Shown one piece after another: positions 8,910 through 40,641 of a stretch of DNA of 64,000 nt; positions within the stretch are counted from its first letter, which is position 1; every line of letters begins with the position of its first letter. The translations under genes and the position numbers were made by a program. The DNA is from a candidate division WOR-3 bacterium (lineage in GTDB: Bacteria > Hydrothermota > 32-111). Location: positions 160,001-224,000 of the forward strand of contig JBDRZU010000001.1 of the NCBI GenBank assembly GCA_039804105.1, read 5' to 3'. The notes under the pieces are model-generated. The model saw only the letters and a list, made by a program, of their open reading frames with translations, was not told the DNA's origin and searched no databases.

Positions 8910-11693
8910 ATGGAAAAAATAGTTGTTAAAGGTGCAAAGGTCCACAACCTTAAAAATATATCCTGCGAAATTCCCAAAAGAAAATTCATCGTGATAACCG
9001 GCGTGAGCGGATCTGGAAAATCATCTTTTGCTTTTGACACTCTCTATGCTGAAGGTCAAAGAAGGTATGTTGAATCACTATCTTCCTATGCGAGACAGTT
9101 TTTAGGGGTTCTCGAAAAACCTGAGGTTGAAAGAATCGATGGCCTTTCACCTGCTATTTCTATTGAACAAAGAAGTATTGCAAAAAACCCAAGATCAACC
9201 GTTGCTACGATAACAGAGATATATGATTATTTAAGAGTTCTCTTTGCAAGAGTTGGCGATATATACTGCTATAACTGTTCAAGACCTGTTATAAAGATGA
9301 GTGTTGATCAGATAGCTGATGAAATACTCTCATTCGCAGGAAAAGTTATAACGATCCTTTCACCAGTTGTTAGAAATAAAAAAGGAGAATTTAAGGAATA
9401 TTTTAAAATTTTGATGAAGAAGGGATATACAAAAATTTTAGTTGATGGACAGACGAAACGGCTGGAAGAGGATATTATACTTGAAAAAAACAGGTTACAT
9501 AATATTTCCATAATTATAGACAAGATAAAAATTGATAATGTTAGCAGAATGCGTTTGACACAATCTTTGGAATTGGCTTTAAAGGAATCTTCAGGGATCG
9601 TTTCGATCTTAACTGAAGATGGACAGGAAAAATTATTTAACACCTCACTTTCATGTCCTTTTTGTAACATATCTTATGGTGAAATCTCTCCAAGAAGTTT
9701 CTCCTTCAACTCTCCTATAGGTGCATGTCCAGTATGTCATGGACTTGGATATAGTATAGAGGCAGATGAAGAACTAATAATTGCTAACGAGGAGCTCTCT
9801 TTATGGGAAGGAGCAATTCATCTCTGGACTGATATATCAAAAAGAACAGATCTTTTAGAACTTGCAAAAATTTTAAAAGTTGATCTAAAAAATAGTTATA
9901 AAGAATTACCTGCTTTTTTTAAAAGAATACTATTTTATGGAATAAAAGATGATGATTATATGTCCTTCAATATTCCAGAAAATTTCTCGTTTGAGTCGAT
10001 AACAGAGTATTTGAAAAGGATCTACCATTCAACGGATTCGGATTGGATGCAACAGGAAATGGGTAAATATCTAATATTTGCAAAATGTAAGGTATGCAAT
10101 GGCGCAAGATTGAAAAAAGAGTACCTTTCAGTTAAGATTAACGGTTTAAACATATATGAGATGACACAGATGAATATTTATAACTCTCTTGATTTTTTTA
10201 AAAATAAAATTTCTTTTAATGAAACGAAAAAAGAGATTTCAAAAGATCTTATTAAGGAAATAATAAAAAAACTCGAATTCCTTGTAAATGTTGGAGTTGG
10301 TTATTTAACATTGGAAAGATCTGTTGAAACTCTATCAGGTGGTGAAGCACAGAGAGTACATCTTGCAACACAGATCGGAAGTGGATTAAACGATGTTATG
10401 TATGTTCTCGATGAACCTTCTATTGGTTTGCACCAGAGGGATGTTAAATTGCTTATAGAAACTTTAAAAGATCTTAGAGATAGAGATAATACTGTCATAG
10501 TTGTTGAACATGATAAAAATTTTATAAAAGAAAGTGATCATATAATAGATTTTGGACCTGGTGCTGGAGATTTTGGGGGCAATATTGTTTTTCAAGGTAG
10601 TTTTGAAGAGATCTTAAAATCGAAGGATTCTCTGACAGGAAAATTTTTGATTGGTAAAGAAAAAGTTTTTGAAAGAAAAGAGGAAAGAAAATTTGATGAT
10701 AACAACTTTATTTTGATAAAAAATGCCTGTGAGCACAATTTAAAAAATATTGATGTGAAGATACCACTTGGATGTTTTGTATGTGTAACTGGAGTTTCTG
10801 GCAGTGGGAAATCGACTCTTGTCAATGATATTCTTTACAATGCTGTCAGAAGGTACTTAAAAGTTTCGAGAATCAAACCAGGAAAACATGATGGTATAGA
10901 AAATTTGCATTTTATAGATAAGGTTATAAACATAGATCAATCACCTATAGGTAGAACTCCAAGATCGAACCCAGCAACATATACTGGAGTTTTTACATAT
11001 ATTAGGGATTTCTTTTCCCAGTTAAAAGAATCAAAAATGAGAGGATACAAACCGGGTAGATTTTCGTTCAATGTCCCAGGTGGAAGATGTGAATCTTGTG
11101 AAGGAGACGGATACAAAAAGATTGAAATGTATTTCCTTCCACCAGTATATGTTCAATGTGATGTTTGTAATGGAAAAAGATTCAACGAGGAAACTTTGCA
11201 GGTTAAGTATAAGGGTAAAAATATTTCAGATGTTTTGAATATGACAGTTATAAACGCTATGGAACTTTTTAAAGATATTCCTAAAATCATTAAAAAGTTG
11301 GAAATTTTGAACGAAGTTGGACTCGGTTACATTAAACTTGGACAACCTGCTGTTTCTCTTTCAGGGGGTGAAGCACAAAGGATAAAACTTGCAAAAGAGC
11401 TTTCGAGAACGGACACCGGTAGAACTTTGTATATTCTCGATGAACCTTCAACTGGATTACATTTTTATGATGTTAAACTTTTACTTAAAGTGCTTGACAA
11501 ATTGGTTAAAAAAGGTAATACTTTAGTTGTGATAGAGCACAATCTTGATATCATAAAATTTGCTGACTGGATAATAGACCTTGGGCCTGAAGGAGGTGAT
11601 GAAGGAGGAAAACTTCTTTTTCAGGGAAAGTTTGATGAATTTTTAAAATGTAAAAATTCTTATACTGCTGAGTACTTAAGAAAAGAGAGATAA
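8910..11693 (+). CDS. uvrA: Excinuclease ABC subunit A
   Basis: Two ABC cassettes ([16 protein letters not shown]), zinc fingers, [11 protein letters not shown]. Confidence 0.99.
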
Positions 11694-27548: not shown

Positions 27549-28255
27549 AAACTGTTGCTGTTGACATAGGAAATTCAAAAATTAAAATTGGATTGATTTC
27601 AAAAGATGTTTTGAAAAAAGTTTATACCTTTGATCAAAATGTACCGGAAAAAATTTTAAAATTTTCTCCAGAAAGAATATACGCTATCTCTGTAAACAAA
27701 AAAAACAAAAAGATTTTTGAACAATCTTGTTCCAAAAAGTTTGATTTTAATGTGTTATTTCTTGAAAAAACAAAAAATGTTTTTGAATCCGAATACTCTT
27801 ATGAAAATATTGGTATAGATAGATTTGTTTCTGTGTATTATGCAATAAAAAGAAAATTATATCCTTCATTGTTAATAGATCTGGGAACAGCTGATACTTA
27901 TGATTTTATTGATGAAAAAGGGAAACATCTTGGTGGGTTTATTTCAGCGGGTTTACAGACAATATCCTATGCCCTTGAAAGAAAAACAGATAATCTCTTT
28001 AAAGTGGAAACATCCACTTTTGATGAAAAAGTTGGTAAAGATACAGAACAGGCATTAAAGAATGGAATATTTTTGCAATGGATTTCTGGAATTTTAACTT
28101 TTATTGGTTTTGGTAAAAAAATTCTTGGAGATTCTAAAATTATCATCACTGGTGGTAACTCGTATCTTTTACAGGATTATATAAAAGATGCAATTTTTGA
28201 TAAAGATTTTCTGTTAAAGGCGATAAATGAATATGGAAAAGATTTTTTTAGTTAA
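27545..28255 (+). CDS. coaX: Type III pantothenate kinase
   Basis: VDIGNS, GIDR, IDLGTA, GGFI..G, TGG. Confidence 0.93.
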   Translation: MKTVAVDIGNSKIKIGLISKDVLKKVYTFDQNVPEKILKFSPERIYAISVNKKNKKIFEQSCSKKFDFNVLFLEKTKNVFESEYSYENIGIDRFVSVYYAIKRKLYPSLLIDLGTADTYDFIDEKGKHLGGFISAGLQTISYALERKTDNLFKVETSTFDEKVGKDTEQALKNGIFLQWISGILTFIGFGKKILGDSKIIITGGNSYLLQDYIKDAIFDKDFLLKAINEYGKDFFS

Positions 28256-28652
28256 AGAGGTTGAAGGTTTAAAAGAAATTGTTGATTTTATTTTAAATTT
28301 AAAATTGTCTACTCCGGTAGTATTTCTTTATGGAAACCTTGGTGCTGGGAAAACAGAATTTGTTAGAGTGTTCGCTAAACATTTCAAAATCGAAAATGTT
28401 TCAAGCCCGACTTTCAATATTGTACATGTTTATGAAAACGAAATGATAAAAATAACCCACATAGACCTCTATCGGATAACAAATATAAATTATGTTTTTG
28501 AACTTGACATATTCCAACTTTTTGAGGATTCAAATTTTACTTTTATCGAATGGCCTGAATTACTTGACCATATTGATCTTAAGCATTATCATTTGATAAA
28601 AATTTTTTTTGATGTAGAGAATGAAAAAAGAAAGGTAAAGATTATATGTTAG
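28233..28652 (+). CDS. tsaE: t6A biosynthesis ATPase TsaE
   Basis: GNLGAGKT, VSSPTF, HIDLYR, IEW. Confidence 0.95.
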   Translation: MEKIFLVKEVEGLKEIVDFILNLKLSTPVVFLYGNLGAGKTEFVRVFAKHFKIENVSSPTFNIVHVYENEMIKITHIDLYRITNINYVFELDIFQLFEDSNFTFIEWPELLDHIDLKHYHLIKIFFDVENEKRKVKIIC

Positions 28653-29242
28653 ATGTTTATATTTCATCTGTGACTTCACAACTGACAGTTTTATTGGTTG
28701 GTGATAATTTTAATATTTTTAGAAAAGTTGAAGATAAAGATTTTCTCGTTGAACTTCCTAAAATTTTCGATAACGATGATTTGAAGAATATTTTTAAAGG
28801 AAATATCTTAAAAAATGTTTTTATCCTTTCTGGAGTTGGCAAACTCACAGGGATGAGAATAGGAGAGGCATTTGCAAAAGGTTTGGTTTTAGGTGATGAT
28901 GAAAATAAGATCAAAAGATTAAATGCTCACGATGTGATATCATTTTCAGTCAAAAGTGATAAAAAAATTCTTTCAATCATAAAGATTAGAAAAAATTCAT
29001 ATTCTCTTTCATTGTTTTCAAATAAGAAAGATTTTAAAAGATTGTCCAACAATTTTGAACTTTCAGGTGAGCATGTTAATAGTTACATTAAAAAAAATGA
29101 ATTTTTTATTGTTGGTGAAGGTGCAAGAGATTTTGACAAGAGTTTGGATGAAAAATTTTTATTTCCAGATGCTTTAAAAATGCACGATTATATAAGAGGT
29201 TTTTATGGAAAAAGTGATGGTTTTGATTCCGGCATGCAATGA
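28646..29242 (+). CDS. tsaB: Divergent TsaB-like protein
   Basis: GVGKLTGMRIG..FAKGL resembles the GPGSFTGLRIG motif; follows tsaE. Confidence 0.7.
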   Translation: MLDVYISSVTSQLTVLLVGDNFNIFRKVEDKDFLVELPKIFDNDDLKNIFKGNILKNVFILSGVGKLTGMRIGEAFAKGLVLGDDENKIKRLNAHDVISFSVKSDKKILSIIKIRKNSYSLSLFSNKKDFKRLSNNFELSGEHVNSYIKKNEFFIVGEGARDFDKSLDEKFLFPDALKMHDYIRGFYGKSDGFDSGMQ

Positions 29243-29867
29243 GGAAAGATTTATAAGAAAATTGATCGAAGAGATAAAACAAAAATATGGTTTAAAAGTT
29301 ATAGTTGTAGATGATGGTTCAAAGGATAAAACTTTTGAGGAAGCGAAGAAGATCGCTGATCATGTAATAAAACATTCCCAGAATCAGGGGAAAGGTCAAT
29401 CAATAATAGATGGTATCAATTTCGCTTTTGGAAAATCTGAGTATATTATTCTCATGGATGGAGATTATCAACATTCACCTGATGATATTGGAAATTTCCT
29501 TAAACAAGATTATGAAAATTTTGATATGTTGGTTGGGAAAAGAAAAATGAATTTTCAAAATATGCCTTTTGATAGGTATCTTACAAATAGAACTACCACA
29601 CTTGTAACATCACTTCTTGCAACAAAAAGAGTTTTTGATTCACAATCAGGTTTTAGAATGGTTAAGGTTGAATCGATTAAAAAGTTGAATTTAAAATACA
29701 AAAGGTTTCAAATCGAATCGGAGATGCTTATAAAAGCTGGAAGGATGAAGATGAATATAGGTTATGTTGATATAAAAACTATTTATGGTGATGAAAAATC
29801 AAAAATAAACAAAATACTTGATACATTAAGATTTATAAAAATGTGTTTGGAGATCTTATGTCTTTAA
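29205..29867 (+). CDS. GT2 glycosyltransferase (DPM1-like)
   Basis: IPACNEE, DDGSKD, GKG, DGDYQH, DSQSGFR. Confidence 0.9.
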   Translation: MEKVMVLIPACNEERFIRKLIEEIKQKYGLKVIVVDDGSKDKTFEEAKKIADHVIKHSQNQGKGQSIIDGINFAFGKSEYIILMDGDYQHSPDDIGNFLKQDYENFDMLVGKRKMNFQNMPFDRYLTNRTTTLVTSLLATKRVFDSQSGFRMVKVESIKKLNLKYKRFQIESEMLIKAGRMKMNIGYVDIKTIYGDEKSKINKILDTLRFIKMCLEILCL

Positions 29868-30607
29868 AAATTCTTCTATCAAACGATGATGGCTTTTACG
29901 CGGAAGGTTTGAAGACATTGAAAGAAATTTTAATCTCTCTTGGACATCAGGTTTATATAGTTGCTCCATCACAAAACCAATCAGCAACAAGTCATTCTCT
30001 AACTTTAACAATTCCTTTGAGGATCAACAGAGTTAATAAGAATGAATATATAACAACCGGAACACCAACAGATTGTGTTTTGATAGCAACACATGGATTG
30101 ATCAAAGAAAAGTTTGATTATGTTTTTTCAGGGATAAACCATGGACCAAATATGGGAGAAGATGTGATATATTCTGGAACTGTTGCTGCTGCAATGGAAG
30201 GTGTTTTGATGAATATACCCTCTGTTGCTTTTTCGATGGCTGCATTTGAAAATGTTGATTTTGCTTATGCAAAGGATGTTGTTCCAAAAATAATCGAACT
30301 TTTAAAACTTATAGGTAAGAGAAAAAGGTTGCTTTTGAATGTGAATATACCAAATAGTTCTATAAAAGGTTATAAAATAACAAAACTTGGAAGCAGGATA
30401 TATTCTGACTCACTCATAACAAAAATTGATCCGAGAGGGAAAAAATATTACTGGATAGGTGGAGAGAAACCTACATACAAGATAAAAAAAGGCACAGATT
30501 TTGAAGCGATCGAAAAAGGTTATGTTTCTATAACACCGATAACATTTGATTTAACAGATTTTAGAATGTTAACTAAAATTAAAAAGGTAGCGAAAAATGT
30601 CTTTTGA
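29858..30607 (+). CDS. surE: 5'/3'-nucleotidase SurE
   Basis: LSNDDG, GTPTDC, SGIN.GPNMG, YSGTVAAA. Confidence 0.97.
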   Translation: MSLKILLSNDDGFYAEGLKTLKEILISLGHQVYIVAPSQNQSATSHSLTLTIPLRINRVNKNEYITTGTPTDCVLIATHGLIKEKFDYVFSGINHGPNMGEDVIYSGTVAAAMEGVLMNIPSVAFSMAAFENVDFAYAKDVVPKIIELLKLIGKRKRLLLNVNIPNSSIKGYKITKLGSRIYSDSLITKIDPRGKKYYWIGGEKPTYKIKKGTDFEAIEKGYVSITPITFDLTDFRMLTKIKKVAKNVF

Positions 30608-31247
30608 AGATTTAAGAAAAAAGATGGTAGAACAACAGTTAAAAAAAAGAGGTATTAAAGATGAAGAACTTTTAAAGGTATTTGAAGAGATACCAAGAGA
30701 ATTTTTTTTACCAAAAGAACTTGTTAACCTTGCTTACGATGATTCTCCCATTCCTATAGGTTTTGGACAGACGATTTCACAACCTTATATCGTTGCAAGG
30801 ATGACTGAACTTTTAGAGGTGAAAAAAAATGATAGGATTCTTGAAATTGGAACAGGTTCAGGTTATCAGGCAGCGATTCTTTCAAAACTTGGGAAAGTTG
30901 TTTTTACTATCGAAAGGATAACAGAATTAAAAAAATTTGCAGAGTCAAATTTAAAAAAACTTGATATAAAAAATGTTTTTTTAGTTACAGGTGATGGAAC
31001 TATCGGTTTATCGAATTATGCGCCTTTTGATAAAATAATTGTTACTGCGGCATCTCCACAGATACCGAAAAACCTTGTTGACCAGTTATCAGATAAAGGT
31101 ATAATGGTTTTGCCATTTGGAGATATATCTTTGCAGGTGTTAACGAAAGTTATTAAGTCAAATGGTGAAATAAAAGTTGAAAAATACGACTACTGTAGAT
31201 TTGTGCCTTTGCTTGGTAAATATGGATTTTTTGAAAACGGGGTGTAG
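30597..31247 (+). CDS. pcm: Protein-L-isoaspartate O-methyltransferase
   Basis: GQTISQP, LEIGTGSGYQ, APFDKI, RFVPL; surE-pcm synteny. Confidence 0.97.
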   Translation: MSFEDLRKKMVEQQLKKRGIKDEELLKVFEEIPREFFLPKELVNLAYDDSPIPIGFGQTISQPYIVARMTELLEVKKNDRILEIGTGSGYQAAILSKLGKVVFTIERITELKKFAESNLKKLDIKNVFLVTGDGTIGLSNYAPFDKIIVTAASPQIPKNLVDQLSDKGIMVLPFGDISLQVLTKVIKSNGEIKVEKYDYCRFVPLLGKYGFFENGV

Positions 31248-31313
31248 CGCAGATGGAAGCGCGCTTGGTTCGGGACCAAGAGGTCGCTGGTTCAAGTCCA
31301 GTCACCCCGACCA
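31238..31313 (+). tRNA. tRNA-Pro (anticodon CGG)
   Basis: Cloverleaf: acceptor CGGGGTG/CACCCCG, D-stem GCGC/GCGC, anticodon stem CTTGG/CCAAG with loop TTCGGGA, T-loop TTCAAGT, 3' ACCA. Confidence 0.97.
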
Positions 31314-32831
31314 AATGCAACTTTTATCAATTTCTGGGTGAGGATATTTGCTCGCTTGCCTCGACTTCGGCTGCTCGCTTCGCAAATTCCCTTATATTTT
31401 GGGATTAAATCAAATGGACGGACAAAATCAAGAATTATTTTTCTATCAAGCAGGCGGCGGTTCGTTCCAATTTTTTCTACGAACGATTTAATTTCATCAA
31501 AATCGTTTGACGAAGCCAGTTTTTACGCTTGATAAGCGGATAAAATCCAATCTATCAATGGTTCAATCCAATTGTTTCCCTTTCGCCCCAAATTAGCCTT
31601 TTTCTGCAGAAGGGTAACTTTGACTTTAATGAATTCTTCTTTTTTAGCAGTATAAATATCTTTCTCAATTGAACCATCCAAAAAAAAGCATTTAGCAATC
31701 TATCAAGTTTTTGTTCTATTTCTTTAATTTCCTTTTCCAGATTTTTGGCCAAAGATTGCAAAGACTGGATATTTTCTTTTTCCCATATCTCAACTTGTGC
31801 CAACATCTTTTCTTTCCACTCTTCGCAAAGAGCGACTTTTGAGTTTTTTTATAATTTTTCAACTAGCAAATCTTCTCTTAGATATCTTTGAGAGCAAGGA
31901 CCGACCTGTTTTGTGCAATGATAGTAGCGGTATGTTCCGTCATTGCCATGCGCCCATTTCGCTGTAATTGCCGCGCTGCACTCACCGCATTTAAAAAGTT
32001 CGGTGAATGGGAAATAATGTCTTTTTTTCGAATGGCGTGGCTTAGTTCGGTTTTTCAAAACTTCCTGCACTATCTCAAAAGTTGCTCTGGAAAAAATTAG
32101 TTTAAACTTATCCTCATAAGTTTCACTATTGTGGACAATCAAGCCAATGTAAACTTTATTAGTTAACATTCTTTGGATTGTTGCTTTACAAAGTGGCTTT
32201 CCGTTTTTACTTATCACGCCCCAAAATTTAAGCTGTTCTCCTAAACTTTCTAAAGTATGTTTTCCATGGCTATATTCTTCAAATGCCCTTTTAATTATTT
32301 TTGATTTTACTGGGGCTAGTTCTATATTTCTTGTTTTGGGATTGTTCACATAGCCAAACGGCGCAAGTTCGGGCCATTCTACGCGTCTCAATTTTTGTCT
32401 AATCCCGCGTTTTACATTTTCGGACAAATTATCGAAGTAGTATTTACTCTAGCCAAAGTCGACTTGAAGCATAAAAAGTCCTTGCGGAATTGGCTCAAAC
32501 CAAAATGTAGGAAAACGCAAAGAAACGATCTTGCCAATATAAATAAGATAAATAATTTGTCCGCTATCAACACTGTTTCTAGCTAACCTGTCTGGATGCC
32601 AGGCCAAAATCCCAACAGGTTCTTTTGATTCATAAATTTTCTGTATCATGTTATTAAAAACTTCTCTTCCGAGTTCTTTGCACTTTTACTTTCAATAACC
32701 TTTTCAGCAATAAAAAGATTTTCTCTTTTAGCGTATTCCATCAACTCAGTTAATTATGCTTCAATGGACATCACTTGTTTTTCTTCATCTTCTGTTGATT
32801 TGCGAGCGTAAGGAAAATATTTTATTTTCAT
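31302..32831 (-). pseudogene. Large serine recombinase, multiple stops and frameshifts
   Basis: ATG 32831 MKIKYFPYARKSTEDEEKQ..(TAA); DRLARN; PFGY; CGEC/YYHC zinc ribbon; coiled coil; 3' end runs into the tRNA. Confidence 0.92.
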
Positions 32832-32952
32832 ATGTTTTCTCCTTAAATTTTAAAAACTGGCTTCGTATTTCCACCAAAGGCGGAAAAGAAAAAATTGAAA
32901 ACAAAATTTTCATTTTGTGCGTTGCTTTGCAACGTCGAACTGCCGTTGGTCG

Positions 32953-33131
32953 CAATTACTGAACGAAGCACGAACATATTTTGAACAAAATCATGACTAA
33001 CATGTTAGTCGCCTTCGTCGACGCACATCCACCTCCTACCCAACAGAAGCGGCGGGAAAAAATTCCTTCCCTCAGACCCGTTTCCTTTTTGCCGCCCGCC
33101 ATGCCCGCTTCGCGGGCGTGCCGCCGATTTT
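32953..33131 (+). repeat. Left arm of ~180-bp imperfect inverted repeat (att-like site plus GC-rich hairpin block)
   Basis: Reverse complement of 36527-36706; manual alignment 54/65 in block 32953-33017 and about 90% in block 33051-33131. Confidence 0.93.
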
Positions 33132-33156
33132 TAGGAAAGAAAAAATCAAAAAACTC

Positions 33157-33185
33157 TTGACATTATTAAAATAATTTTGTATCAT
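33157..33185 (+). promoter_or_regulatory. Promoter for the cargo operon
   Basis: TTGACA-17nt-TATCAT upstream of the XRE gene. Confidence 0.65.
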
Positions 33186-33227
33186 AATTATAAATTGTTA
33201 TTACTGCATATATACATCAATACTATA

Positions 33228-33446
33228 ATGTCAAAAGAGATTTCGCAAATGGGTAAAAATATAAAAAAATTAAGAGAACAAAAAGGCCTGTCCCAAGATT
33301 GGCTTTCTAAAATAGCTGATAATTCCTATAACACAGTCATAAAGTTAGAGTCGGGCGATATTACCAATCCCTCAATTGACACGCTTCAAAAATTAGCCAA
33401 GACTCTTAATGTTTCCGTTGATGATTTATTGAAAGTGCCAAAATAA
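33228..33446 (+). CDS. XRE-family HTH regulator (possible R-M controller protein)
   Basis: GKNIKKLREQKGLSQ..L.....KLESG...NPSIDTLQKLA..LNVS. Confidence 0.9.
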   Translation: MSKEISQMGKNIKKLREQKGLSQDWLSKIADNSYNTVIKLESGDITNPSIDTLQKLAKTLNVSVDDLLKVPK

Positions 33447-33450
33447 AAAT

Positions 33451-34503
33451 ATGAACGATTACAAAGAACGAAAATATTTATCTTCGATAGAGGCTGCCAA
33501 GTATTTAGGTATTACCGTTGAAATGCTACATAATTTAGTTAGATCAAAAAAAATCAAATGTATTATTGCAGCAAGCGGACAAAAACGCTTTGATTTAAGA
33601 GATTTAAAAGAATACGAAAAAACAAATCTTAAAATAGATAAAGAACATATTAAGGAAATAGAATTGCCTGTGGAAAATGTATTGAGCATTAATAATACTA
33701 TTCAAAAAATCTTTATTAAAAATGCTATGAGCATGGATGAATTAAAAGATGATTCAATCCATTTAATGGTTACTTCACCGCCTTATTTCGATGCCAAAAT
33801 GTATACTAAAAAACCGATCAAAAACGATTTAGGTAATATACATGATCTTGATGAATGGTTTGAGAAAATTAGTGCGGTTTGGAAAGAGGTCTTTAGAGTT
33901 TTACAGCCGGGGAGAAAAGCATTCATTAATATCATGAATTTACCTGTAAGAGACAATGGAGGATTTAAATCTTTGAATTTAGTTGGTAGCACTATAGATA
34001 TAATGGAGAAAATTGGATTTATCTTTAAAAGAGATATAGTGTGGCATAAAACTCATGGTGTTAAAGCACATTTTGGAACTTATCCATATCCAGGCGGAAT
34101 TCTTATAAATAATATGCATGAATTTATTTTGGAATTTAATAAACCTGACAAAAAGGGATTTAACAAATATGGACATCTAACTAAAGAACAAAAAGAAGCA
34201 TCCAAACTTGATAAAGAATTTTGGTTATCCCTTAAAAATACTGATGTTTGGCTTATGAAGCCGCAGAATAGTGGTGATAACCGTTTACATGTAGCCCAAT
34301 TTCCTTATGAGTTACCTTATAAAATAATTAAAGCATTTACCTTCGTTGGCGAAACAGTATTAGATCCATTTTTAGGAAGTGGTACAACCTTAAAAGCAGC
34401 GGCAGATTTAAAACGAAATGGTATTGGTTACGAGATTGTTCCTGAAATTGCAGAAACAGCGATAAAAAATTTAAACAATTATCAAAGTAAATTATTTGTC
34501 TAA
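33451..34503 (+). CDS. Beta-class amino-DNA methyltransferase (N4-C/N6-A) with N-terminal excisionase-like HTH
   Basis: LSSIEAAKYLGI HTH; motif IV TSPPY precedes motif I DPFLGSGTT. Confidence 0.93.
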   Translation: MNDYKERKYLSSIEAAKYLGITVEMLHNLVRSKKIKCIIAASGQKRFDLRDLKEYEKTNLKIDKEHIKEIELPVENVLSINNTIQKIFIKNAMSMDELKDDSIHLMVTSPPYFDAKMYTKKPIKNDLGNIHDLDEWFEKISAVWKEVFRVLQPGRKAFINIMNLPVRDNGGFKSLNLVGSTIDIMEKIGFIFKRDIVWHKTHGVKAHFGTYPYPGGILINNMHEFILEFNKPDKKGFNKYGHLTKEQKEASKLDKEFWLSLKNTDVWLMKPQNSGDNRLHVAQFPYELPYKIIKAFTFVGETVLDPFLGSGTTLKAAADLKRNGIGYEIVPEIAETAIKNLNNYQSKLFV

Positions 34504-35632
34504 AATTATGAAACAAGACGCAAAAACAATTTATGCTCAATCAAGCGATATTAAGTCTAGAACTTATCTAGAATATCGCAAAGATATGAAACAAAAAGCC
34601 ATTGCAGAACTAGAAGTTTTACCTTGGCTACGAGAGAAAGTTAAAGAGAAAGATAAAAAGGCTACAGTAGAAAAATTTGGTGGGGATAAATTTATCTGGT
34701 TTTTGAGAAAGGGAGGAATTACCAGAGAACCTGATTTTGTCATTAGATATTCGGACGGAAAAACTAAATTCGTTGAATTTCAATATGCAAAAGAAGAGCT
34801 AAATGCTTATGATTTTAAAATTTCTAAAATAGCTCCCCGAGATAGAACTCTAAAGAAAAGAGTCCCTAAAGATGATACAGAAATTTTATATGTTATAAAA
34901 CCAACTAACAAATTCGCTATTTTATATCCTTCTTGGATAGTTAGAAATTCAAAAGAAACAGTAGCAGCAGCATGGGGCAACGCCCCAGTATTTAGAGTAC
35001 CCGCTAATAAATTCAAAAAAGTTTTAATGACAGATAATAGCTTAAATAAAGTTTGTGACTCTATAGATAAAAAAATAGCAATTTTAGAATTTCAACATAA
35101 AGCTATTGAAATTGAAAAAGAAAAAATGTCCTACCTATTACAACAGGTTGTTGATGAAAAAAAAATTTTGAAAATAATTCCTCAAACATTAGATGGTTTT
35201 TTTAAGGTTTGTTTTATACTCAATCATCTAGAAAAAATTCCTATTAATGCTAATTTATGGCTTATCTACCTTTTGTCTTTTTTGAATACAAAATTAAACT
35301 CCCTAGAATTATTTCAGTTAATTTATAGTTTAGATTTTCTTTATTTAAAAATTGAGTTAAAAGAAAACGAGTTAAATAAATTAGTCGAAAGCTTAAAAGA
35401 GATTCAAAATCAGATTAATGAATTTTCAAAACCAGATGGTTCATATCAATCCGATAAAACTATATCGCCATTAGAAGATACAAGATATTCATTATTCTCA
35501 ATAAATATTCTTGAAGATTTAATACAAGATGTTTTGTATTATTATGGAAACAAAGTTAATTTGAAGCCCATTACTAGAATTTATCAAAATGTTTCAGATA
35601 TAGAGAAAACCTTTGAATTTATTTCAAAATAG
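34496..35632 (+). CDS. Putative restriction endonuclease with helical C-terminal extension
   Basis: PD-(D/E)xK-like REPDF...VEFQ; abuts or overlaps the MTase end; start may be 34508. Confidence 0.55.
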   Translation: MSKIMKQDAKTIYAQSSDIKSRTYLEYRKDMKQKAIAELEVLPWLREKVKEKDKKATVEKFGGDKFIWFLRKGGITREPDFVIRYSDGKTKFVEFQYAKEELNAYDFKISKIAPRDRTLKKRVPKDDTEILYVIKPTNKFAILYPSWIVRNSKETVAAAWGNAPVFRVPANKFKKVLMTDNSLNKVCDSIDKKIAILEFQHKAIEIEKEKMSYLLQQVVDEKKILKIIPQTLDGFFKVCFILNHLEKIPINANLWLIYLLSFLNTKLNSLELFQLIYSLDFLYLKIELKENELNKLVESLKEIQNQINEFSKPDGSYQSDKTISPLEDTRYSLFSINILEDLIQDVLYYYGNKVNLKPITRIYQNVSDIEKTFEFISK

Positions 35633-35634
35633 GT

Positions 35635-35994
35635 ATGGAAAATAGAATTAAGCATTTAGAATTTATACAATCTATAAATCAACAGAATGGCTAATAATTC
35701 ATTTATAATGAAAGTCTGGTCGATAACTTTGATTGCGGTTTTTTTGCTTTATCCTCAAAAGATGCTAACAAAAATTATATTGTCATTTCTCTCTTGCCTG
35801 TTATAATTTTTTGGATTCTAGATAGATATTTTTTATCTAGAGAAAGAGCATTCCTTTGTTTATATAACAAAGTAAGAAATTTACACGTGAAGGATATTGA
35901 TTTCTCTTTAGATATTTCAGAATTTAGAGAGCGAAAAAATAATTGGTTTCTGTCGATTTCTTGCATACAGTTTTATTTTTCTATGCTTCTTTAA
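35635..35994 (+). pseudogene. Frameshifted multi-TM protein of a family I recall being encoded beside TIR genes
   Basis: MENRIKHLEFIQSI /fs/ NRMANNSFIMKVWSITLIA /fs/ ..FWILDRYFLSRERAF..LY..VR..IDFS. Confidence 0.75.
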
Positions 35995-36036
35995 TAGATG
36001 TTATGTTAATAATTTCATATCTAATCAAGTAAAATT

Positions 36037-36528
36037 ATGGCAAGACGAGTATTTTTTAGTTTTCATTATGAAAGGGATATTTGTCGAGCAAGCCAAATTA
36101 GAAACAGCTGGATAACAAAACCAGACAGAGAAACCGCTGGCTTTTGGGTCGCTGCTTCGTGTGAGGAAGTAAAAAAGAAAGGCAAAGAAACAATTAAACG
36201 ATGGATTGATAATCAACTCAATGGCACATCTGTTACGTTAGTGTTAATAGGAGCTGAAACCAATGAGAGCAAGTGGGTTAGTTATGAAATTCAAAAAAGT
36301 TATCAAATTGGAAATGGTATGTTGGGTATTTATAATCGTAATATGAAAGATCAGTATGGACGAACTTATTATAAAGGTAAAAATCCATTTTATAATTGGT
36401 CTATTACAAGAAATACTCAAAAAATTCTTCTTTCATCTCTTTATCGGACTTATGATTGGGTTTCTGATAATAGATATAAGAATTTAGTTGATTGGGTAGA
36501 AAAAGCGGCGAAAGATGCTGGAAGATAA
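36037..36528 (+). CDS. TIR-like protein (MTH538/DUF1863, Thoeris ThsB-like)
   Basis: RRVFFSFHY..D, TSVTLVLIG.ET..SKWV.YEI with catalytic Glu. Confidence 0.9.
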   Translation: MARRVFFSFHYERDICRASQIRNSWITKPDRETAGFWVAASCEEVKKKGKETIKRWIDNQLNGTSVTLVLIGAETNESKWVSYEIQKSYQIGNGMLGIYNRNMKDQYGRTYYKGKNPFYNWSITRNTQKILLSSLYRTYDWVSDNRYKNLVDWVEKAAKDAGR

Positions 36529-36706
36529 AATCGGCGGCTCGCCCACGAAGCGGGCATGGCAGGCGGGCAAAAAGGAAGGGGTCTGGGGGAAGGAATTTTT
36601 TCCCGCCCTTTAGTTTTGAGTGTCGCGGGGGCGACCGTATTCGAAGACGACGCAAAGATTAGTCAGAATTTTGTTCAAAATATATTCGTGTTTCATTCAG
36701 TAATTG
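36527..36706 (-). repeat. Right arm of ~180-bp inverted repeat, includes predicted attR half-site
   Basis: Reverse complement matches 32953-33131; encodes QLLNETRIYFEQNSD* on the minus strand. Confidence 0.93.
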
Positions 36707-36782
36707 AGAAAATTTTTAAATTTCTTTGTTTCTTGACACTTTTCATGATTTAAATAAAATCAAATTTTTAAAAGGAGGTAAT

Positions 36783-37361
36783 ATGAACAATAAATTTTTC
36801 ACATTTATTAAACCTTATCTTGCATTCATCGACAATGGAGATTTCTTTAAAAAACCATTTTTATGGCTTTACACAATTTTAGCGTTAATCAATCTGATTA
36901 TTCCTATTTATATTCTTTATGAAGCAATTGACAACAAGATTTTTGATGCTGGGGCAAAACATGTTTTTATATTTTTTATAGTTTGGTTGATAATAACTTT
37001 TGCAAGTTGGGTCAGTTTTCAGTTGTGGTGGGATAGAAGGTTTAAAGTTGTTTCCATATCGAAAATGGGGGACGATTTTGTTGTGATTCCAATATTTTCA
37101 CATTTTGTTCAAACAGCAGGGGAATGGATAGGAACATGGCTTGGTATCGTTGGTTTTTTTAGTTCTCTTCTTGTGTCTTTATTTATTGGAGAAGAGGGTA
37201 GTAATTTTATGCAAAATTTAAACCTTGGTTTTTTGAGTTTGAATTTCATATTTATTATTTTAATGCCTGTAATTGGTTTTCTGATAATAATTGTAACAAG
37301 ATTTTTATCTGAACAGTTCAAAGCGATTGCGATGATCGCTAACAATACGAAAAAAAGTTGA
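36783..37361 (+). CDS. Hypothetical multi-pass membrane protein
   Basis: AGGAGG SD before ATG 36783; about 4 hydrophobic helices. Confidence 0.75.
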   Translation: MNNKFFTFIKPYLAFIDNGDFFKKPFLWLYTILALINLIIPIYILYEAIDNKIFDAGAKHVFIFFIVWLIITFASWVSFQLWWDRRFKVVSISKMGDDFVVIPIFSHFVQTAGEWIGTWLGIVGFFSSLLVSLFIGEEGSNFMQNLNLGFLSLNFIFIILMPVIGFLIIIVTRFLSEQFKAIAMIANNTKKS

Positions 37362-37385
37362 AAGATTGAAAAGTTTAAGATTTAC

Positions 37386-37411
37386 AATGGGGGTGTTATA
37401 AAACCCCCATT
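37386..37411. terminator. Probable bidirectional intrinsic terminator
   Basis: AATGGGGGT-loop-ACCCCCATT hairpin between convergent genes. Confidence 0.7.
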
Positions 37412-37426
37412 CTTTATTAAAAAAAT

Positions 37427-38161
37427 TTAAAAAAATTGTTCTTCGATCTTTTGAATATTTTCTTTTATCAATTTTTCAATCTCTTTTATCACAAGTTCTG
37501 AATATTTTTTACATTTTGTTTTATTAAGATCAATTTTCCCGCCATTTTCAGAGTAAAGTATTGTTGAAGCAGGTGATGGTATAGATTCAAAACCTTCTAT
37601 AGAAATATTGTAAAGATTTTTATCGTTAATATATTTTTCATTTATCTGTTTATCATCTATGATTTTTACCATCGCTGTTTCATCAACTCCACCATGTCCA
37701 CCTTCCTTACCAAAAACTTTTTTACAGAAAGGATATCCAATGATCCACCAATGGATTATAAAGACAAACATTCCAGTTTCTAAAAAGATTTTCTTTTTTA
37801 AATTTGAAAGAACTTTATTGTTGCCACCATGTCCATTCATAATGATAAGGTATTTAAAATTTTCCTTTTTCATCGATAAAGCGATGTCAAAAATTAATTT
37901 TTCAAAGGTCTCATCTTTTAATGTAACAGAACCTGGATATGGTAAAAGTGAAGATGTGATCGAGTAGTGAACAGGCGGGTAGATAAGCCCATTGAGTTTG
38001 TCAGCAAGTTTTTCACAAATATATTCGGGGATTATCGTATCTGTTCCATTTGAAGTTATCGAATGTGCTTCAAGAGTTCCTATTGGAAGAAAAGCAATAT
38101 CACATTTTTCTTTCAATTTTTTTATATCTCTCCAGTTGAGTTTATCTATTCTTCTTTCCAT
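37427..38161 (-). CDS. Creatininase family protein
   Basis: PIGTLEAH, GTD, NGHGGN, GHGGVDET. Confidence 0.92.
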   Translation of the reverse strand: MERRIDKLNWRDIKKLKEKCDIAFLPIGTLEAHSITSNGTDTIIPEYICEKLADKLNGLIYPPVHYSITSSLLPYPGSVTLKDETFEKLIFDIALSMKKENFKYLIIMNGHGGNNKVLSNLKKKIFLETGMFVFIIHWWIIGYPFCKKVFGKEGGHGGVDETAMVKIIDDKQINEKYINDKNLYNISIEGFESIPSPASTILYSENGGKIDLNKTKCKKYSELVIKEIEKLIKENIQKIEEQFF

Positions 38162-38220
38162 AAACACTCCTTTTTCTCTATTATACTTGTTAATTTTAAA
38201 AAATCTATTATAATTTTTTT

Positions 38221-39231
38221 ATGCAAATTTTTTTATTTCTATTCATTGTTGTTGTTTTAATAATTATAAATTTTATTTTCTTTAAATTTTTTGAGTTAAA
38301 AATAGTTTCAAAAATAAAAGAGAATGAAAATTATTTTAAAGATCAGGTAATTCAGTCATTGAATCAAAACATTGAGAAGATTGAAAGAACAAAAGATCTC
38401 ATTTCAACAAATGCTATTGAAACTTTCAAAGTGATCAACAATTTAACGGATTCTTTAAGTAAAATAAGCGAGGACCAGAAAGTTGCAAATGAACTTTCTA
38501 AAGATTTAAAATACTTTTTCGATCGGCCAAAACTCCGAGGAGGATTTGGAGAGGTTATTTTAAAGGAACTTGTTTCTGATATTTTACCTTTAAATATGTA
38601 TGAAGAGCAGTTTAAATTACCTAACAATTATATAGTTGATCTGGTTATAAAGTATAGGGATCTTTTGATACCGATTGATTCGAAATTTCCCTCTGAGGAT
38701 TATAAAAGATACTATTTTGAAAAGGATGAAAAACTAAAAAACGATTATTTTAAAATTTTTATAAATCAGTTGAAAAAAATAGGAGAATCAGTTAGTTCAA
38801 AATATATAAGACCTGAAGATGGAACATCGGATTTTGCAATCATTTTTATTCCTTCAGATTCTATTTATATTGAAGCAATACAACAAACTTATCCTGGTGG
38901 TGAGAAGAACGATCTTTTTGAAACCCTTTTGAAAAAAAGGGTGCTTCTTGCAGGACCTTCAACATTTTTTGCTTTTTTAAATGTTATACTTGCAGGTTTA
39001 AAACAATATAGATTTGTTGAGATTTCAAAAGAGATTATCAAAAATGTTGAAAAATTGAGTAAAAATTTAGAAGAGAATTCTTTGAATTTACAAAATCTTG
39101 AAAAAAAAGTTAACGAACTGAATAAAAGTTATGAAACATTGCAGAAATCTTTTTCGAAAACTGAAAAAAGTTTTAAAAACATTTTGAGTTTTGAAAAGGA
39201 AGAGAGGGAAAATGATGAAAAGAATTTATAG
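38221..39231 (+). CDS. rmuC: DNA recombination protein RmuC
   Basis: RGGFGEVIL, PIDSKFP, DFAIIFIPSDS, GPST. Confidence 0.9.
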   Translation: MQIFLFLFIVVVLIIINFIFFKFFELKIVSKIKENENYFKDQVIQSLNQNIEKIERTKDLISTNAIETFKVINNLTDSLSKISEDQKVANELSKDLKYFFDRPKLRGGFGEVILKELVSDILPLNMYEEQFKLPNNYIVDLVIKYRDLLIPIDSKFPSEDYKRYYFEKDEKLKNDYFKIFINQLKKIGESVSSKYIRPEDGTSDFAIIFIPSDSIYIEAIQQTYPGGEKNDLFETLLKKRVLLAGPSTFFAFLNVILAGLKQYRFVEISKEIIKNVEKLSKNLEENSLNLQNLEKKVNELNKSYETLQKSFSKTEKSFKNILSFEKEERENDEKNL

Positions 39232-39817
39232 ATTCATTCTGGTGCCAATGTTACTTTTAATACTTTTTGGTTGTTCAAATAATGATATAAAGGTAAGTTT
39301 CAACAGGATTGGGAATTTAAAACCGAAATCCCCTGTTATTTTTGAAAGTGATTCTGTTGGTTTTGTCCATAAGATTGAGTTTCTTGATTCGAACTATCTT
39401 GTTCATATAAAAATAACTGAAAAAAAGGAATTCTTAAATTATAATCCTTATTTTTACCTGATCGACTCAGATTCTGATGCAAAGATTGTAATTCTTGATG
39501 ATCCTTCAAAAGGTTTCAATGATTTTGATGAAGAAAAGATTTTTAAAGGTGGAAATGAACTCGATTACTATCTAAAACTTTTTTCGTTAAAGTTAAATGA
39601 GAAAATAGATTCTTTGAAATCAGATGAAAGGATCAAAGAGTTAATTGAAAATTTGAATCTAAAATTGAATGAACTGAAAGATAAAGGTGAAGAAAAATAT
39701 GAGAAAATAAGACCCGAAATTGAAAAAAATATTGATGAAATTTTTGAAAAAATGAAAAAAAGTTTTAAAAGAGAAGAGTTTGAAAGTTTAAAAGAGAAGA
39801 TTAAAAAGTTATTTTAA
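39212..39817 (+). CDS. MCE/MlaD-like lipoprotein
   Basis: Lipobox LFGC; F...GNLKPKSPV....VG.V..I; coiled-coil tail. Confidence 0.55.
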   Translation: MMKRIYRFILVPMLLLILFGCSNNDIKVSFNRIGNLKPKSPVIFESDSVGFVHKIEFLDSNYLVHIKITEKKEFLNYNPYFYLIDSDSDAKIVILDDPSKGFNDFDEEKIFKGGNELDYYLKLFSLKLNEKIDSLKSDERIKELIENLNLKLNELKDKGEEKYEKIRPEIEKNIDEIFEKMKKSFKREEFESLKEKIKKLF

Positions 39818-39819
39818 AA

Positions 39820-40641
39820 ATGTTCTTTTTAATTTTAAGTGTTGTTTCATCGGTAATAATAGGAAATCTTTTAAAGCTCTTTCAAAAAGATAAAGAATTT
39901 TCAATACTCTTGATACTTCTTTCAAACTATTTTATAGCAACCTTTATAAGTGTTCTTCAGTTAAATGTGTCAAATTTAACTTTTAATTTTTATGATATAA
40001 TACTTGCGATCTTTGTTGGAGTGCTCTATTTTATAAATTTTTTAATTTACAATAAAAATGTAAAAGAAAATGGTATATCTTTGTCCATATCTGTTATGAG
40101 AGTTTCTCTTATTATACCTTTATTTCTTTCAGTTTTTCTTTTTAAAGAAGGTTTGACTATTAATTTGCTATTAGGATCATTTTTTATCATTCTTGCACTC
40201 CTTTTGATTGGAAAGTTGAAAGATAGAATAAACATATCATTATTATTTCTCTTATTTTTTAATACGGGGGTATCAGAATCCGGGTTTAAATTTTTTGACG
40301 CTTATGGCAAAATCAACAACTCCCTTTTTTTATCTATTCTTTTTTCATCAGCATTTATTGCTAATTTTCTTTTTTTTCTTATCGCAAAAGAAAGAATTAG
40401 TTTTAAAAATATACTTTATGGAATCATGATTGGAATCCCTAACCAATTCATGTCATTTTTTTTTCTTAAATCTTTAAAATATATTCCTGCATCAATGGCG
40501 TATCCATTTCTTGGTGGAGGTGTTGTGTTGGGAGGTATTTTTACTGATATGATATTTTGGAAACTAAAACCATCTTTTAAACAGAATATTATTTTGATTT
40601 TACTTCTTTTTGGAGTAATCTTTCTCAATTTAAAACCTTAA
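39820..40641 (+). CDS. DMT/EamA-family transporter
   Basis: About 10 TM helices in two repeats; GIPN, AYP motifs. Confidence 0.8.
   Translation: MFFLILSVVSSVIIGNLLKLFQKDKEFSILLILLSNYFIATFISVLQLNVSNLTFNFYDIILAIFVGVLYFINFLIYNKNVKENGISLSISVMRVSLIIPLFLSVFLFKEGLTINLLLGSFFIILALLLIGKLKDRINISLLFLLFFNTGVSESGFKFFDAYGKINNSLFLSILFSSAFIANFLFFLIAKERISFKNILYGIMIGIPNQFMSFFFLKSLKYIPASMAYPFLGGGVVLGGIFTDMIFWKLKPSFKQNIILILLLFGVIFLNLKP

Follow-up and report, generated by a model that had tools for sequence, protein, structure and literature searches.

What does a mirrored repeat around a defence cassette do when it lies beside a recombinase gene? The question is raised by a stretch of 64,000 nucleotides (nt) from a candidate division WOR-3 bacterium (assembly GCA_039804105.1, contig JBDRZU010000001.1, positions 160,001 to 224,000), here called the window, in which a large serine recombinase (LSR) gene on the minus strand reads into a transfer RNA (tRNA) gene for proline and five further genes lie between two inward-facing copies of a repeat. 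A preliminary description of this DNA had proposed a three-site invertible element, able to flip both the recombinase gene and the defence cassette. We find that the layout recurs throughout a large family of islands that carry a second, inverted copy of the recombinase gene end, and that the copy in the window has decayed. All coordinates are those of the window. For each attachment (att) site, the side of the core that holds the 3' end of the recombinase gene is called the P arm, and the side that holds the short coding tail and a GC-rich block is called the T arm or T repeat.

The repeat itself is readily delimited. A repeat search identifies an 81-nt inverted pair with 89% identity (33051-33131 and 36527-36607), and MAFFT and BLAST extend it to a full pair of ~180 nt with ~80% identity (~32950-33131 against 36709-36527). 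A BLAST search of the window's genome (1.81 Mb, 85% complete) returns these two copies and no more, with 79% identity over query positions 10-191 and an E value of 2.5e-37, and a second BLAST comparison of the two copies gives 79.3% over 184 nt. The copies face inward and bracket five genes, which confirms the earlier observation of a ~180-nt inverted repeat around the defence cargo, with the correction that the two copies agree to only ~80%:

32946-33131, plus strand: inner inverted copy, with the core TTGGTCG (32946-32952), the tail QLLNEARTYFEQNHD and its stop codon (32953-33000), a spacer, and a GC-rich hairpin with a T-run (33047-33131)
36527-36706, minus strand: right copy, the attR-side end of the recombinase gene, with the tail QLLNETRIYFEQNSD and its stop codon (36706-36659) and a GC-rich hairpin region (36607-36527)

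Each copy comprises 16 sense codons, a diverged spacer and a GC-rich block of ~80 nt that is capable of forming hairpins and has a terminal T-run; the translation of the inner copy ends in ..CRWSQLLNEARTYFEQNHD before the stop. The hairpins and the T-run suggest that the GC-rich block is a terminator. The TTGGTCG of the inner copy is present on the opposite strand at the tRNA junction (31309-31315), so that the sharing of this word between the two places, as first described, is borne out by the sequence. Rfam matches the tRNA and, below threshold, RAGATH-12 in the cargo, and assigns neither repeat copy to an RNA family. The block at 33047-33131 forms a long near-palindromic hairpin, the centre of which is reversed in a related locus (L098, 9505-9600), resembling a flip-flop within the hairpin.

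Sequencing evidence for the locus consists of Logan contigs of five runs from hot-spring metagenomes of two studies; such contigs drop rare variants. Run X1 matches best, with 84% of the sampled words, and perhaps represents the source, and runs X2-X4 contain small shares of the stretch, mostly from relatives. Separate X1 contigs span the two repeat copies, one of 643 nt corresponding to 32710-33352 and one of 3871 nt corresponding to 35754-37200, and both agree with the assembly. That the repeat might be an assembly artefact or a chance match is suggested by the many related contigs that end inside it, stopping 200-450 nt upstream of the recombinase. Against this stand the spanning contigs, the E value of the match, the divergence of the copies, which an assembler could therefore neither collapse nor duplicate, and the recurrence of the layout in more than 50 independent assemblies. 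This explanation is effectively excluded.

What kind of element does the repeat belong to? Its left boundary lies at the only tRNA gene in the window, and its right boundary lies at the outer edge of the right copy:

31238-31313, plus strand: tRNA-Pro(CGG), integration target and left half of attB (ARAGORN; Rfam tRNA, 65.7 bits), with its 3' CCA supplied by the island
31309-31315, unstranded: attL core, CGACCAA on the plus strand and TTGGTCG on the recombinase strand, with the probable crossover GA at 31309-31310
36707-36709, unstranded: attR core remnant and right boundary of the island, AGA instead of the expected CGA

A genome of the same genus (G001) carries the empty site, which reads ..CACCCCGA followed by TTTTTATT. 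It aligns to 28000-31310 and to 36768-40000 of the window, with 44 nt between the two blocks, right after its tRNA-Pro. The island is absent there and the flanks lie 44 nt apart; the island of the window therefore extends from 31311 to ~36709, a size of 5.4 kb. The four sites compare as follows, the inner one being given as its reverse complement:

attB (G001): ..CACCC-C-GA-TTTTTATT
attL: ..CACCC-C-GA-CCAAATGC
inner site: CAGTAATTG-C-GA-CCAACGG
attR: CAGTAATTG-A-GA-AAATTTTT, with A in place of the expected C

Only one dinucleotide, GA (TC on the recombinase strand), occurs in all four sites, with the inner site inverted, and it is our candidate for the crossover. We also considered a palindromic CG crossover, which would remove the polarity of the sites. 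It was rejected because GA/TC alone is common to the four sites here, and also on a family view, since the Gln, Lys, Arg and transfer-messenger RNA (tmRNA) subtypes have no palindrome at the corresponding position.

An intact relative reveals where attP lies. In G020, a genome of the same phylum and another family, a recombinase of 537 amino acids (aa) with a resolvase catalytic domain (PF00239, 1.2e-20) reads over the core into an antisense tRNA-Pro gene (..NDESCIWS, then GRLDLNQRPLGPEPSAL..). The inner site of G020 lies just upstream of the start codon on the other strand; in it, 62-63 nt repeat the gene's 3' end without a mismatch and lead into core and tail. Another contig ends in a third copy, which matches exactly from the core on, with unrelated host DNA before the core. 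This arrangement implies that attP is located inside the 3' end of the recombinase gene. The window follows the same plan: its recombinase runs antisense into the tRNA's 3' end, and the right copy places a tail and hairpin region on the recombinase strand at the far end of the island, beside the host flank. Its place on that strand, at the opposite end, is what an attP inside the gene would predict. We consider it rather probable that 31311-~36709 is an integrative island inserted by an LSR at the 3' tip of tRNA-Pro(CGG), with attP inside the recombinase gene and the inner copy as a second, inverted attP. The preliminary description had likewise taken the inner copy for a third att-type site that lies inverted, and comparison across the family supports this. 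Exchange at the shared core would, as also proposed there, leave the tRNA ending in ..CCCCGA-CCA and bring the tail into frame with ..KSCIWS, to give ..CIWS-QLLNEARTYFEQNHD and a stop codon.

Could the copy in the window still move or invert? Two further features bear on this:

31303-32832, minus strand: LSR pseudogene, reading toward and into the tRNA gene and ending ..KSCIWSG and a stop codon (three-frame translation and tblastn against G020)
32833-32945, minus strand: conserved recombinase-upstream region with a small hairpin, joined straight to the core (alignment with L032, L056, L054 and G020; BLAST)

The longest fragment of the recombinase (31849-32427) retains the Recombinase domain (PF07508, 5.6e-13) and Zn_ribbon_recom (PF13408, 1.2e-8). 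tblastn against the intact G020 protein recovers the gene in three pieces and two reading frames, and the long pieces have 64-66% amino-acid identity. The N-terminal piece matches G020 residue for residue, including ..YARKSTEDE.., with stops within it. At least three in-frame stops (at Gln26, at a Gln in ..AFGQSKYY.. and in ..LLVRQLKD..) and at least three frameshifts relative to G020 interrupt the sequence, and the frame is lost again past ..NAFL. The gene does not form an intact open reading frame, and a second recombinase homologue was not found in the window's genome at its 85% completeness. The recombinase had been described as in need of a full-length tail. A tail is indeed encoded beyond the crossover point, but the gene is a pseudogene, damaged beyond simple truncation.

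The spare site is incomplete too. The upstream region that the window has in common with L032, L056, L054 and others passes from ..CGAACTGCCG directly into TTGGTCG, at a place where relatives hold 92-160 nt of gene-end sequence. The first ~10 and the last 7 nt of the P arm are retained, and a sensitive self-comparison finds no inverted match to the recombinase 3' end beyond words of 7-11 nt. Of a complete inverted attP, the core and the T arm are thus present and the P arm is deleted; the inner copy, earlier taken for an intact-looking core site, lacks the ~150 nt that stand left of the core in intact relatives. Related elements are represented in runs X3 and X4 by contigs in which 31464 is joined to 32896-32935 on opposite strands; this corresponds to the intact P-arm arrangement. 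In a set of 36 distinct tails (34 from related loci and the window's two copies), the tail of the right copy has ATA where 35 of the 36 have Thr, and its CGAAC motif is mutated; the alignment of the tails is anchored on CGAAC, and the invariance of the Arg codon follows from this by construction. With a broken recombinase, a lost P arm, a mutated attR core and tail codon and one frameshifted cargo gene, the copy in the window is a dead fossil, in which an invertible switch is hardly possible. The fossil shows an order of decay: recombinase, then spare P arm, core and cargo.

The proposal of a working three-site element at this locus, with a recombinase that flips its own gene (attL x inner site) and the defence cassette (inner site x attR), has to be judged against this decay. 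The geometry permits both flips and the reading frame is correct, GA/TC is the one dinucleotide common to the four sites, in inverted orientation at the inner one, and the layout is conserved across the family. The stops and frameshifts of a recombinase that has no second copy in the genome, the deletion of the inner P arm, the mutations in the attR core and in the invariant CGAAC motif of the tail, and the mere 80% likeness of the repeat copies all argue against activity, and the X1 contigs show the assembled order only. Such an element is very improbable here, and for this copy the reading is largely refuted; of the flips in the preliminary description, the geometry stands and the operation is not supported. 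Two kinds of joint in the sequencing data, 32996-36608 and 31464/32896-32935, were examined as flips of the window locus and rejected, since at 90-95% likeness they come from related elements. Separately, one X1 contig of depth 10.5 joins 33132, where the inner copy ends, to 36708, in the host flank immediately beyond the right copy, with 20 nt on the shorter side, and skips 3575 nt. It might stem from a second strain that lacks the cargo or from a chance join.

If the window holds a fossil, the living form has to be sought in relatives. A search with the G020 protein against one-genome-per-species contigs yields 563 stretches encoding relatives, and the family counts given here refer to the best 80 of these 563, with 57-100% identity to the G020 protein. 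The metagenome-assembled genomes (MAGs) that hold them are labelled Patescibacteria or candidate phyla radiation (CPR), Omnitrophota, Saccharibacteria, Atribacterota, Planctomycetia, Bdellovibrionales, Actinomycetota and others. In 63 of the 80 the recombinase has an antisense tRNA or tmRNA gene at its 3' end; 11 others end at a contig edge and in six none is called. Pro is the target in 47 of the 63, followed by Gln (6), Trp (2) and Lys (2), with Phe, Arg, Val, Asp, His and tmRNA represented once each. An inverted P-arm repeat of 92-281 nt is present in 53 of the 57 loci that have at least 300 nt of upstream sequence and a near-full-length match; 35 of the 53 reach an identity of 98% or more, 12 fall into the range 90-98% and six stay below 90%. 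Among the 27 loci with a P-arm repeat and at least 3 kb of upstream sequence, 17 also carry an abutting T repeat of 148-435 nt, 85-100% identical (100% in six), around cargo of 1.1-8.9 kb. L061 has the T repeat too despite a shorter flank, and L042, L076 and L098 have a non-abutting version.

The two repeats meet at the core. Of the 18 loci with both a P and a T repeat, 14 show an overlap of 3-7 nt between them, reading TGGTCG or TGTCG at Pro targets, TGGCTG at Gln and TGGTGG at Lys and tmRNA. These letters form the reverse complement of the target's 3' terminus, from the last acceptor bases through the discriminator to the CCA. The spare site lies at a constant position, 120-350 nt upstream of the recombinase start and between recombinase and cargo, and the duplicated unit of 250-600 bp comprises the last 30-55 codons, the tail, the stop and the hairpin region. 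In this small sample, recombinase intactness and repeat identity show no clear correlation. Within a sample of the window's phylum, seven of 100 genomes, the window's included, match the repeat, usually with two copies. To judge from these comparisons, the three-site layout (attL, inner attP and attR with a core of 3-7 nt), with its two pairs of long inverted repeats, usually almost identical, one pair enclosing the recombinase segment and the other the cargo, is a conserved trait of a large multi-phylum family. The worry that the inner copy might be a one-off relic is answered by this recurrence beside serine recombinases and around variable, often defensive cargo, with the P-arm repeat in 53 of 57 loci.

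For the window in particular, the inner copy could also be the leftover of a second related island that was inserted in tandem or nested and then deleted. The T copies of the window are ~80% identical, where intact relatives usually have 97-100%, and the two are similarly far from the T arm of G020 (79% and 75%). L098 has the look of an array of islands, with three T copies that have diverged and a native tail on its recombinase. However, the inner copy sits exactly at the family's spare-attP position, abuts the conserved recombinase-upstream region and retains both ends of the P arm, and a spare is present at this place in 53 of 57 relatives. We therefore regard the leftover explanation as improbable and continue with the reading of the inner copy as a second, inverted attP.

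Several relics of the family were encountered along the way. In L020 (G029:C29, 7889-8100), a tRNA-Pro(CGG) gene has a GC-rich block and a tail fragment in reverse complement, ending ..cagtaattgCGA, within ~130 nt behind it, and then comes host sequence. It looks like a solo scar in which the attR-side block is left and the recombinase, the spare site and the cargo are lost. The window shows that tail-and-hairpin relics persist beside tRNA genes. L013 (G043:C3, 6563-11520) is a recombinase-less version at a tmRNA gene, with an inward-facing tail ..DDVRTFFEQNPDDFTD ending in a stop codon, hairpin blocks and a conserved promoter string; its cargo is a 1069-aa type IIG-like restriction-modification (R-M) gene and a 159-aa open reading frame, and its two ends are marked by a 38-bp direct repeat with the terminal CCA of the tmRNA as its first letters, the left junction being non-canonical as an att site. 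L014/L015 (G003:C1, ~115689-130027, same genus as the window) contains two inverted 26-nt tail matches 12.4 kb apart, the first ~1.8 kb from a tRNA-Ser(CGA) gene, and is probably a second family member at that tRNA.

Why would an island keep a mirrored copy of its own gene end? The tails themselves are informative. All 36 are open for 13-18 aa, or 29 aa in one case, and then stop. Tail codon 3 is Leu in 36 of 36 through four different codons, and codon 2 is Leu, Ile or Phe through ten codons. This synonymous variation at conserved residues implies selection on the translated tail, and selection on the tail in turn implies that a full-length protein is made in some state of the element. A mechanism can be outlined. 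Integration through the attP in the 3' end of the gene leaves the gene body at the tRNA, antisense into it, and carries the last 16 codons and the hairpin region to the far end. It would remove the conserved tail and so lock the island. Inversion of the recombinase segment, either by homologous recombination between the long repeats or by the recombinase itself, would re-join the gene to the spare tail and the downstream hairpin and re-arm the enzyme. We put forward tentatively, as possible rather than probable, that the spare gene end works in this way as an ON/OFF switch that integration locks and inversion re-arms.

Some features of the repeats are relevant to the route. Near-perfect repeats are found around 1.5-9 kb of DNA, and these imply gene conversion or homologous recombination, or a very recent origin, since site-specific exchange merely swaps arms. 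A broader proposal is that the family represents a new class of self-locking element: loss of the tail at integration would freeze the island, and a rare inversion through the mirror-image spare gene end would re-arm the enzyme, so that the integration state, without a separate directionality factor, would decide mobility. The twin sites would also allow cargo cassettes to flip or be exchanged, and the inner attP could capture other tRNA genes and rearrange chromosomes. As a whole this proposal is doubtful.

Relatives in other arrangements give some insight into how the inner site is used. A flipped-type left junction, in which a sense tRNA is joined to the inverted P arm, the promoter and a recombinase pointing away, is found in four of the 80 loci (L034, L039, L066 and L081). 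In L039 and L066 the contig ends before the other side of the gene. The MAG that holds L066 and L081 was searched, and its T copies lie at contig ends only. L098, and perhaps L087, have a native-type recombinase tail, and their contigs, which end early, fit a circle, an array or a flipped state alike. The flipped-type junctions show that the inner attP, or a flip, is used in nature, and none of them is a proven simple flip. In L081 (the whole 4661-nt contig) and in L034 (9642-11571) the recombinase module stands alone between two facing tRNA genes, which in L081 are tRNA-Pro(GGG) and tRNA-Pro(CGG), with arms 79% alike. Such an arrangement would arise if the inner attP recombined with a second tRNA gene and the intervening DNA were lost or inverted.

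The same loci bear on a different role for the spare attP, namely as a recombinase-binding operator between the divergent promoters of recombinase and cargo that serves autoregulation, as in Tn3 res, or as a second docking site, through which a circle could integrate by either attP or capture a second tRNA gene. The constant position of the spare, 120-350 nt from the recombinase start and ahead of the cargo, speaks for such a role. The L081 module between tRNA-Pro(GGG) and tRNA-Pro(CGG) and the sense tRNAs joined to an inverted P arm in L066 and L039 are what recombination between the inner attP and a tRNA attB should give, and the prevalence of the locked state speaks against frequent flipping. 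On the other hand, a binding site requires ~50 bp, compared to a duplicated unit of 250-600 bp that contains a complete spare gene end, and equal use of the two attP sites predicts that an intact recombinase should point away in about half of the loci, where four of 80 are seen. We judge an operator or docking role, the main rival of the switch, unlikely.

The reading of the spare gene end as a switch also has to be weighed against a number of observations that count against it. The locked state, with the recombinase reading into the tRNA, is seen in 63 of the 80 loci and the flipped-type junction in four, and in L081 and L034 a tRNA on both sides of the recombinase module means that they are not simple flips. 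Among the matches listed from the Logan contigs, which cannot show the absence of rare forms, none of at least 99% likeness to the window has either segment flipped. Cargo direction is biased: in 18 complete loci all genes point away from the inner site in 12 and toward it in two, and the direction is mixed in four. Under the established synapsis rules of phage serine integrases, an attL site does not pair with an attP site, and a flip catalysed by the recombinase would be unorthodox. The P-arm repeat is absent from four of the 57 eligible loci (L023, L032, L056 and L084), one of which, L056, has an open recombinase frame of 555 aa; the spare is therefore dispensable for persistence. Runs of N occur in the inner-site region of L032 (~9700-9720) and at the recombinase 3' end of L030, and these two loci are judged only in part. 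In the window, the two T copies are 20% apart and the recombinase is still well recognisable, and the two copies may come from different lineages. The GC-rich 3' blocks have ordinary folding energies (z of -1.9 and -0.9), and a simple terminator scan does not call the hairpin region.

How do these islands compare with known systems? The nearest solved relatives of the recombinase are SPbeta YokA (9dxh, E 1.4e-7) and A118 (4kis), with E values of ~1e-7 to 1e-6. As in the LSRs of phages and integrative and conjugative elements (A118/LI, SPbeta SprA/YokA, phiC31 and Bxb1), the domain order is Resolvase-Recombinase-Zn-ribbon, the core is short, and attP x attB gives hybrid attL and attR sites. Unlike in those systems, attP lies inside the 3' end of the integrase gene, the target is the last few nt of a tRNA, and a second complete inverted attP is kept. 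Searches of PLSDB plasmids and INPHARED phages return distant LSRs only (at most 29% identity), those of IMG/VR viral contigs return no relative, and the small islands yielded no candidate for a recombination directionality factor. The best NCBIfam partial matches of the intact homologue, CcrB of SCCmec (101 bits against a cut-off of 900) and XisF (88.6 bits against 375), mark a likeness to SCCmec Ccr and XisF in this respect only, and membership of either family was rejected, as the scores fall far below the cut-offs.

An attP inside the recombinase gene is also known from the SSV-type archaeal integrases, in which integration partitions the int gene and excision restores it. Those enzymes are tyrosine recombinases whose genes are split near the middle, and they are not known to have an inverted spare site. 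Recombinase-flanked invertible segments are represented by the yeast 2-micron circle, with FLP/FRT in large inverted repeats, and by invertons of the Hin/Gin type. The predicted excised circle of the present islands would resemble such systems, with two large inverted repeats, a recombination site at the centre of each and two unique segments. Unlike FLP and Hin/Gin, the island enzyme is an LSR, no enhancer is known, and inversion is a prediction.

The closest parallel found in print is with the ssrA islands of Dehalococcoides, where the reverse-strand gene of the serine integrase DsiB lies beside attL at the island edge and overlaps the tmRNA gene's 3' end (McMurdie et al. 2011, PMC3146451). 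According to the main text of that paper, the stop codon of dsiB is unclear, and the enzyme may reach full function only on the circle or next to another island from which the 3' fragment comes (PMC3146451). An LSR at the attL edge, antisense over the 3' end of the target gene, is thus common to both. As described there, the DsiB system differs from the present islands in its six-gene integration module, its 20-bp direct repeat and its insertion in the T-loop; the main text of PMC3146451 nowhere uses the word 'inverted' and describes no spare inverted attP. A second inverted attP in serine-recombinase islands was not found described in the full-text literature searched, a body that leaves subscription journals and supplements outside, and LSR islands with a mirrored spare attP appear to be undescribed as a kind. 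Serine integrases are major tools of genome engineering, and the control of their directionality is an active question. An attP in the enzyme's own gene, a tRNA-tip target that is universally conserved and used in many phyla, and a second, inverted attP would together offer a natural case of state-dependent integrase control and a two-site cassette architecture.

The genes that the repeat brackets in the window, and the promoter-like site ahead of them, are as follows:

33157-33185, plus strand: promoter-like site TTGACA-17-TATCAT ahead of the cargo (11/12 matches; regional count not above shuffles)
33177-33446, plus strand: gene of an XRE or R-M controller (C) protein (Pfam HTH_3, 2.7e-15; PADLOC Control_protein and HTH), with a likely start ATG near 33228
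33451-34503, plus strand: type II N6/N4 DNA methyltransferase with an N-terminal HTH_17 (Pfam N6_N4_Mtase, 3.3e-44, and HTH_17, 1e-7; PADLOC MTase_II, 1e-57)
34496-35632, plus strand: 378-aa protein without a family match, candidate restriction endonuclease by position
35655-35994, plus strand: frameshifted gene of a PDC-M50A-like small membrane protein (PADLOC PDC-M50A, 1.4e-16, profile positions 56-122 of 134), with the N-terminal part in another frame
36037-36528, plus strand: ThsB-like TIR protein, PDC-M50B (Pfam ThsB_TIR, 3.7e-23; PADLOC ThsB1, 2.1e-60, and PDC-M50B, 8.1e-59)

The C protein, the methyltransferase and the 378-aa protein probably form a type II R-M system. The 378-aa protein has no match in Pfam, PADLOC or NCBIfam, and its residues ~5-185 give weak structural leads in Atlas to nuclease folds of the Hjc/NOV_C type. 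The HTH_17 region of the methyltransferase (33451-33620) has a weak NCBIfam match to 'excisionase family' (E 0.0036). The TIR gene and the small membrane gene make up the PADLOC candidate pair PDC-M50, of which A is frameshifted and B is the TIR. Thoeris was considered for this pair and rejected: the ThsB-like TIR is present (2.1e-60), and ThsA is not.

Among the defence cargo of relatives are ApaLI-like and BglII-like type II R-M systems with C proteins, type I R-M, ResIII with a methyltransferase and AbiU2, SMODS with SLATT, an AAA_15 ATPase with DUF2130, and AAA_13 with HNH. Other cargo consists of an ArsR-thioredoxin-permease set, a P-type ATPase, a glyoxalase, and ALAD with a hydrolase. 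Variable, accessory and often defensive is a fair description of this cargo, the defence kinds ranging over R-M types I, II and III, systems resembling the cyclic-oligonucleotide-based antiphage signalling system (CBASS), abortive infection (Abi) and TIR systems. The islands appear to be a common vehicle of small defence and accessory cassettes in uncultivated bacteria with small genomes, where few mobile elements are understood. The promoter-like string ahead of the cargo is conserved beside the equivalent repeat in the recombinase-less island at the tmRNA gene of G043 (L013). A contig in each of X1 and X2 shares just a promoter-proximal stretch of ~30 nt (33140-33171) with the window and has other flanks, which indicates a second context for it in the community.

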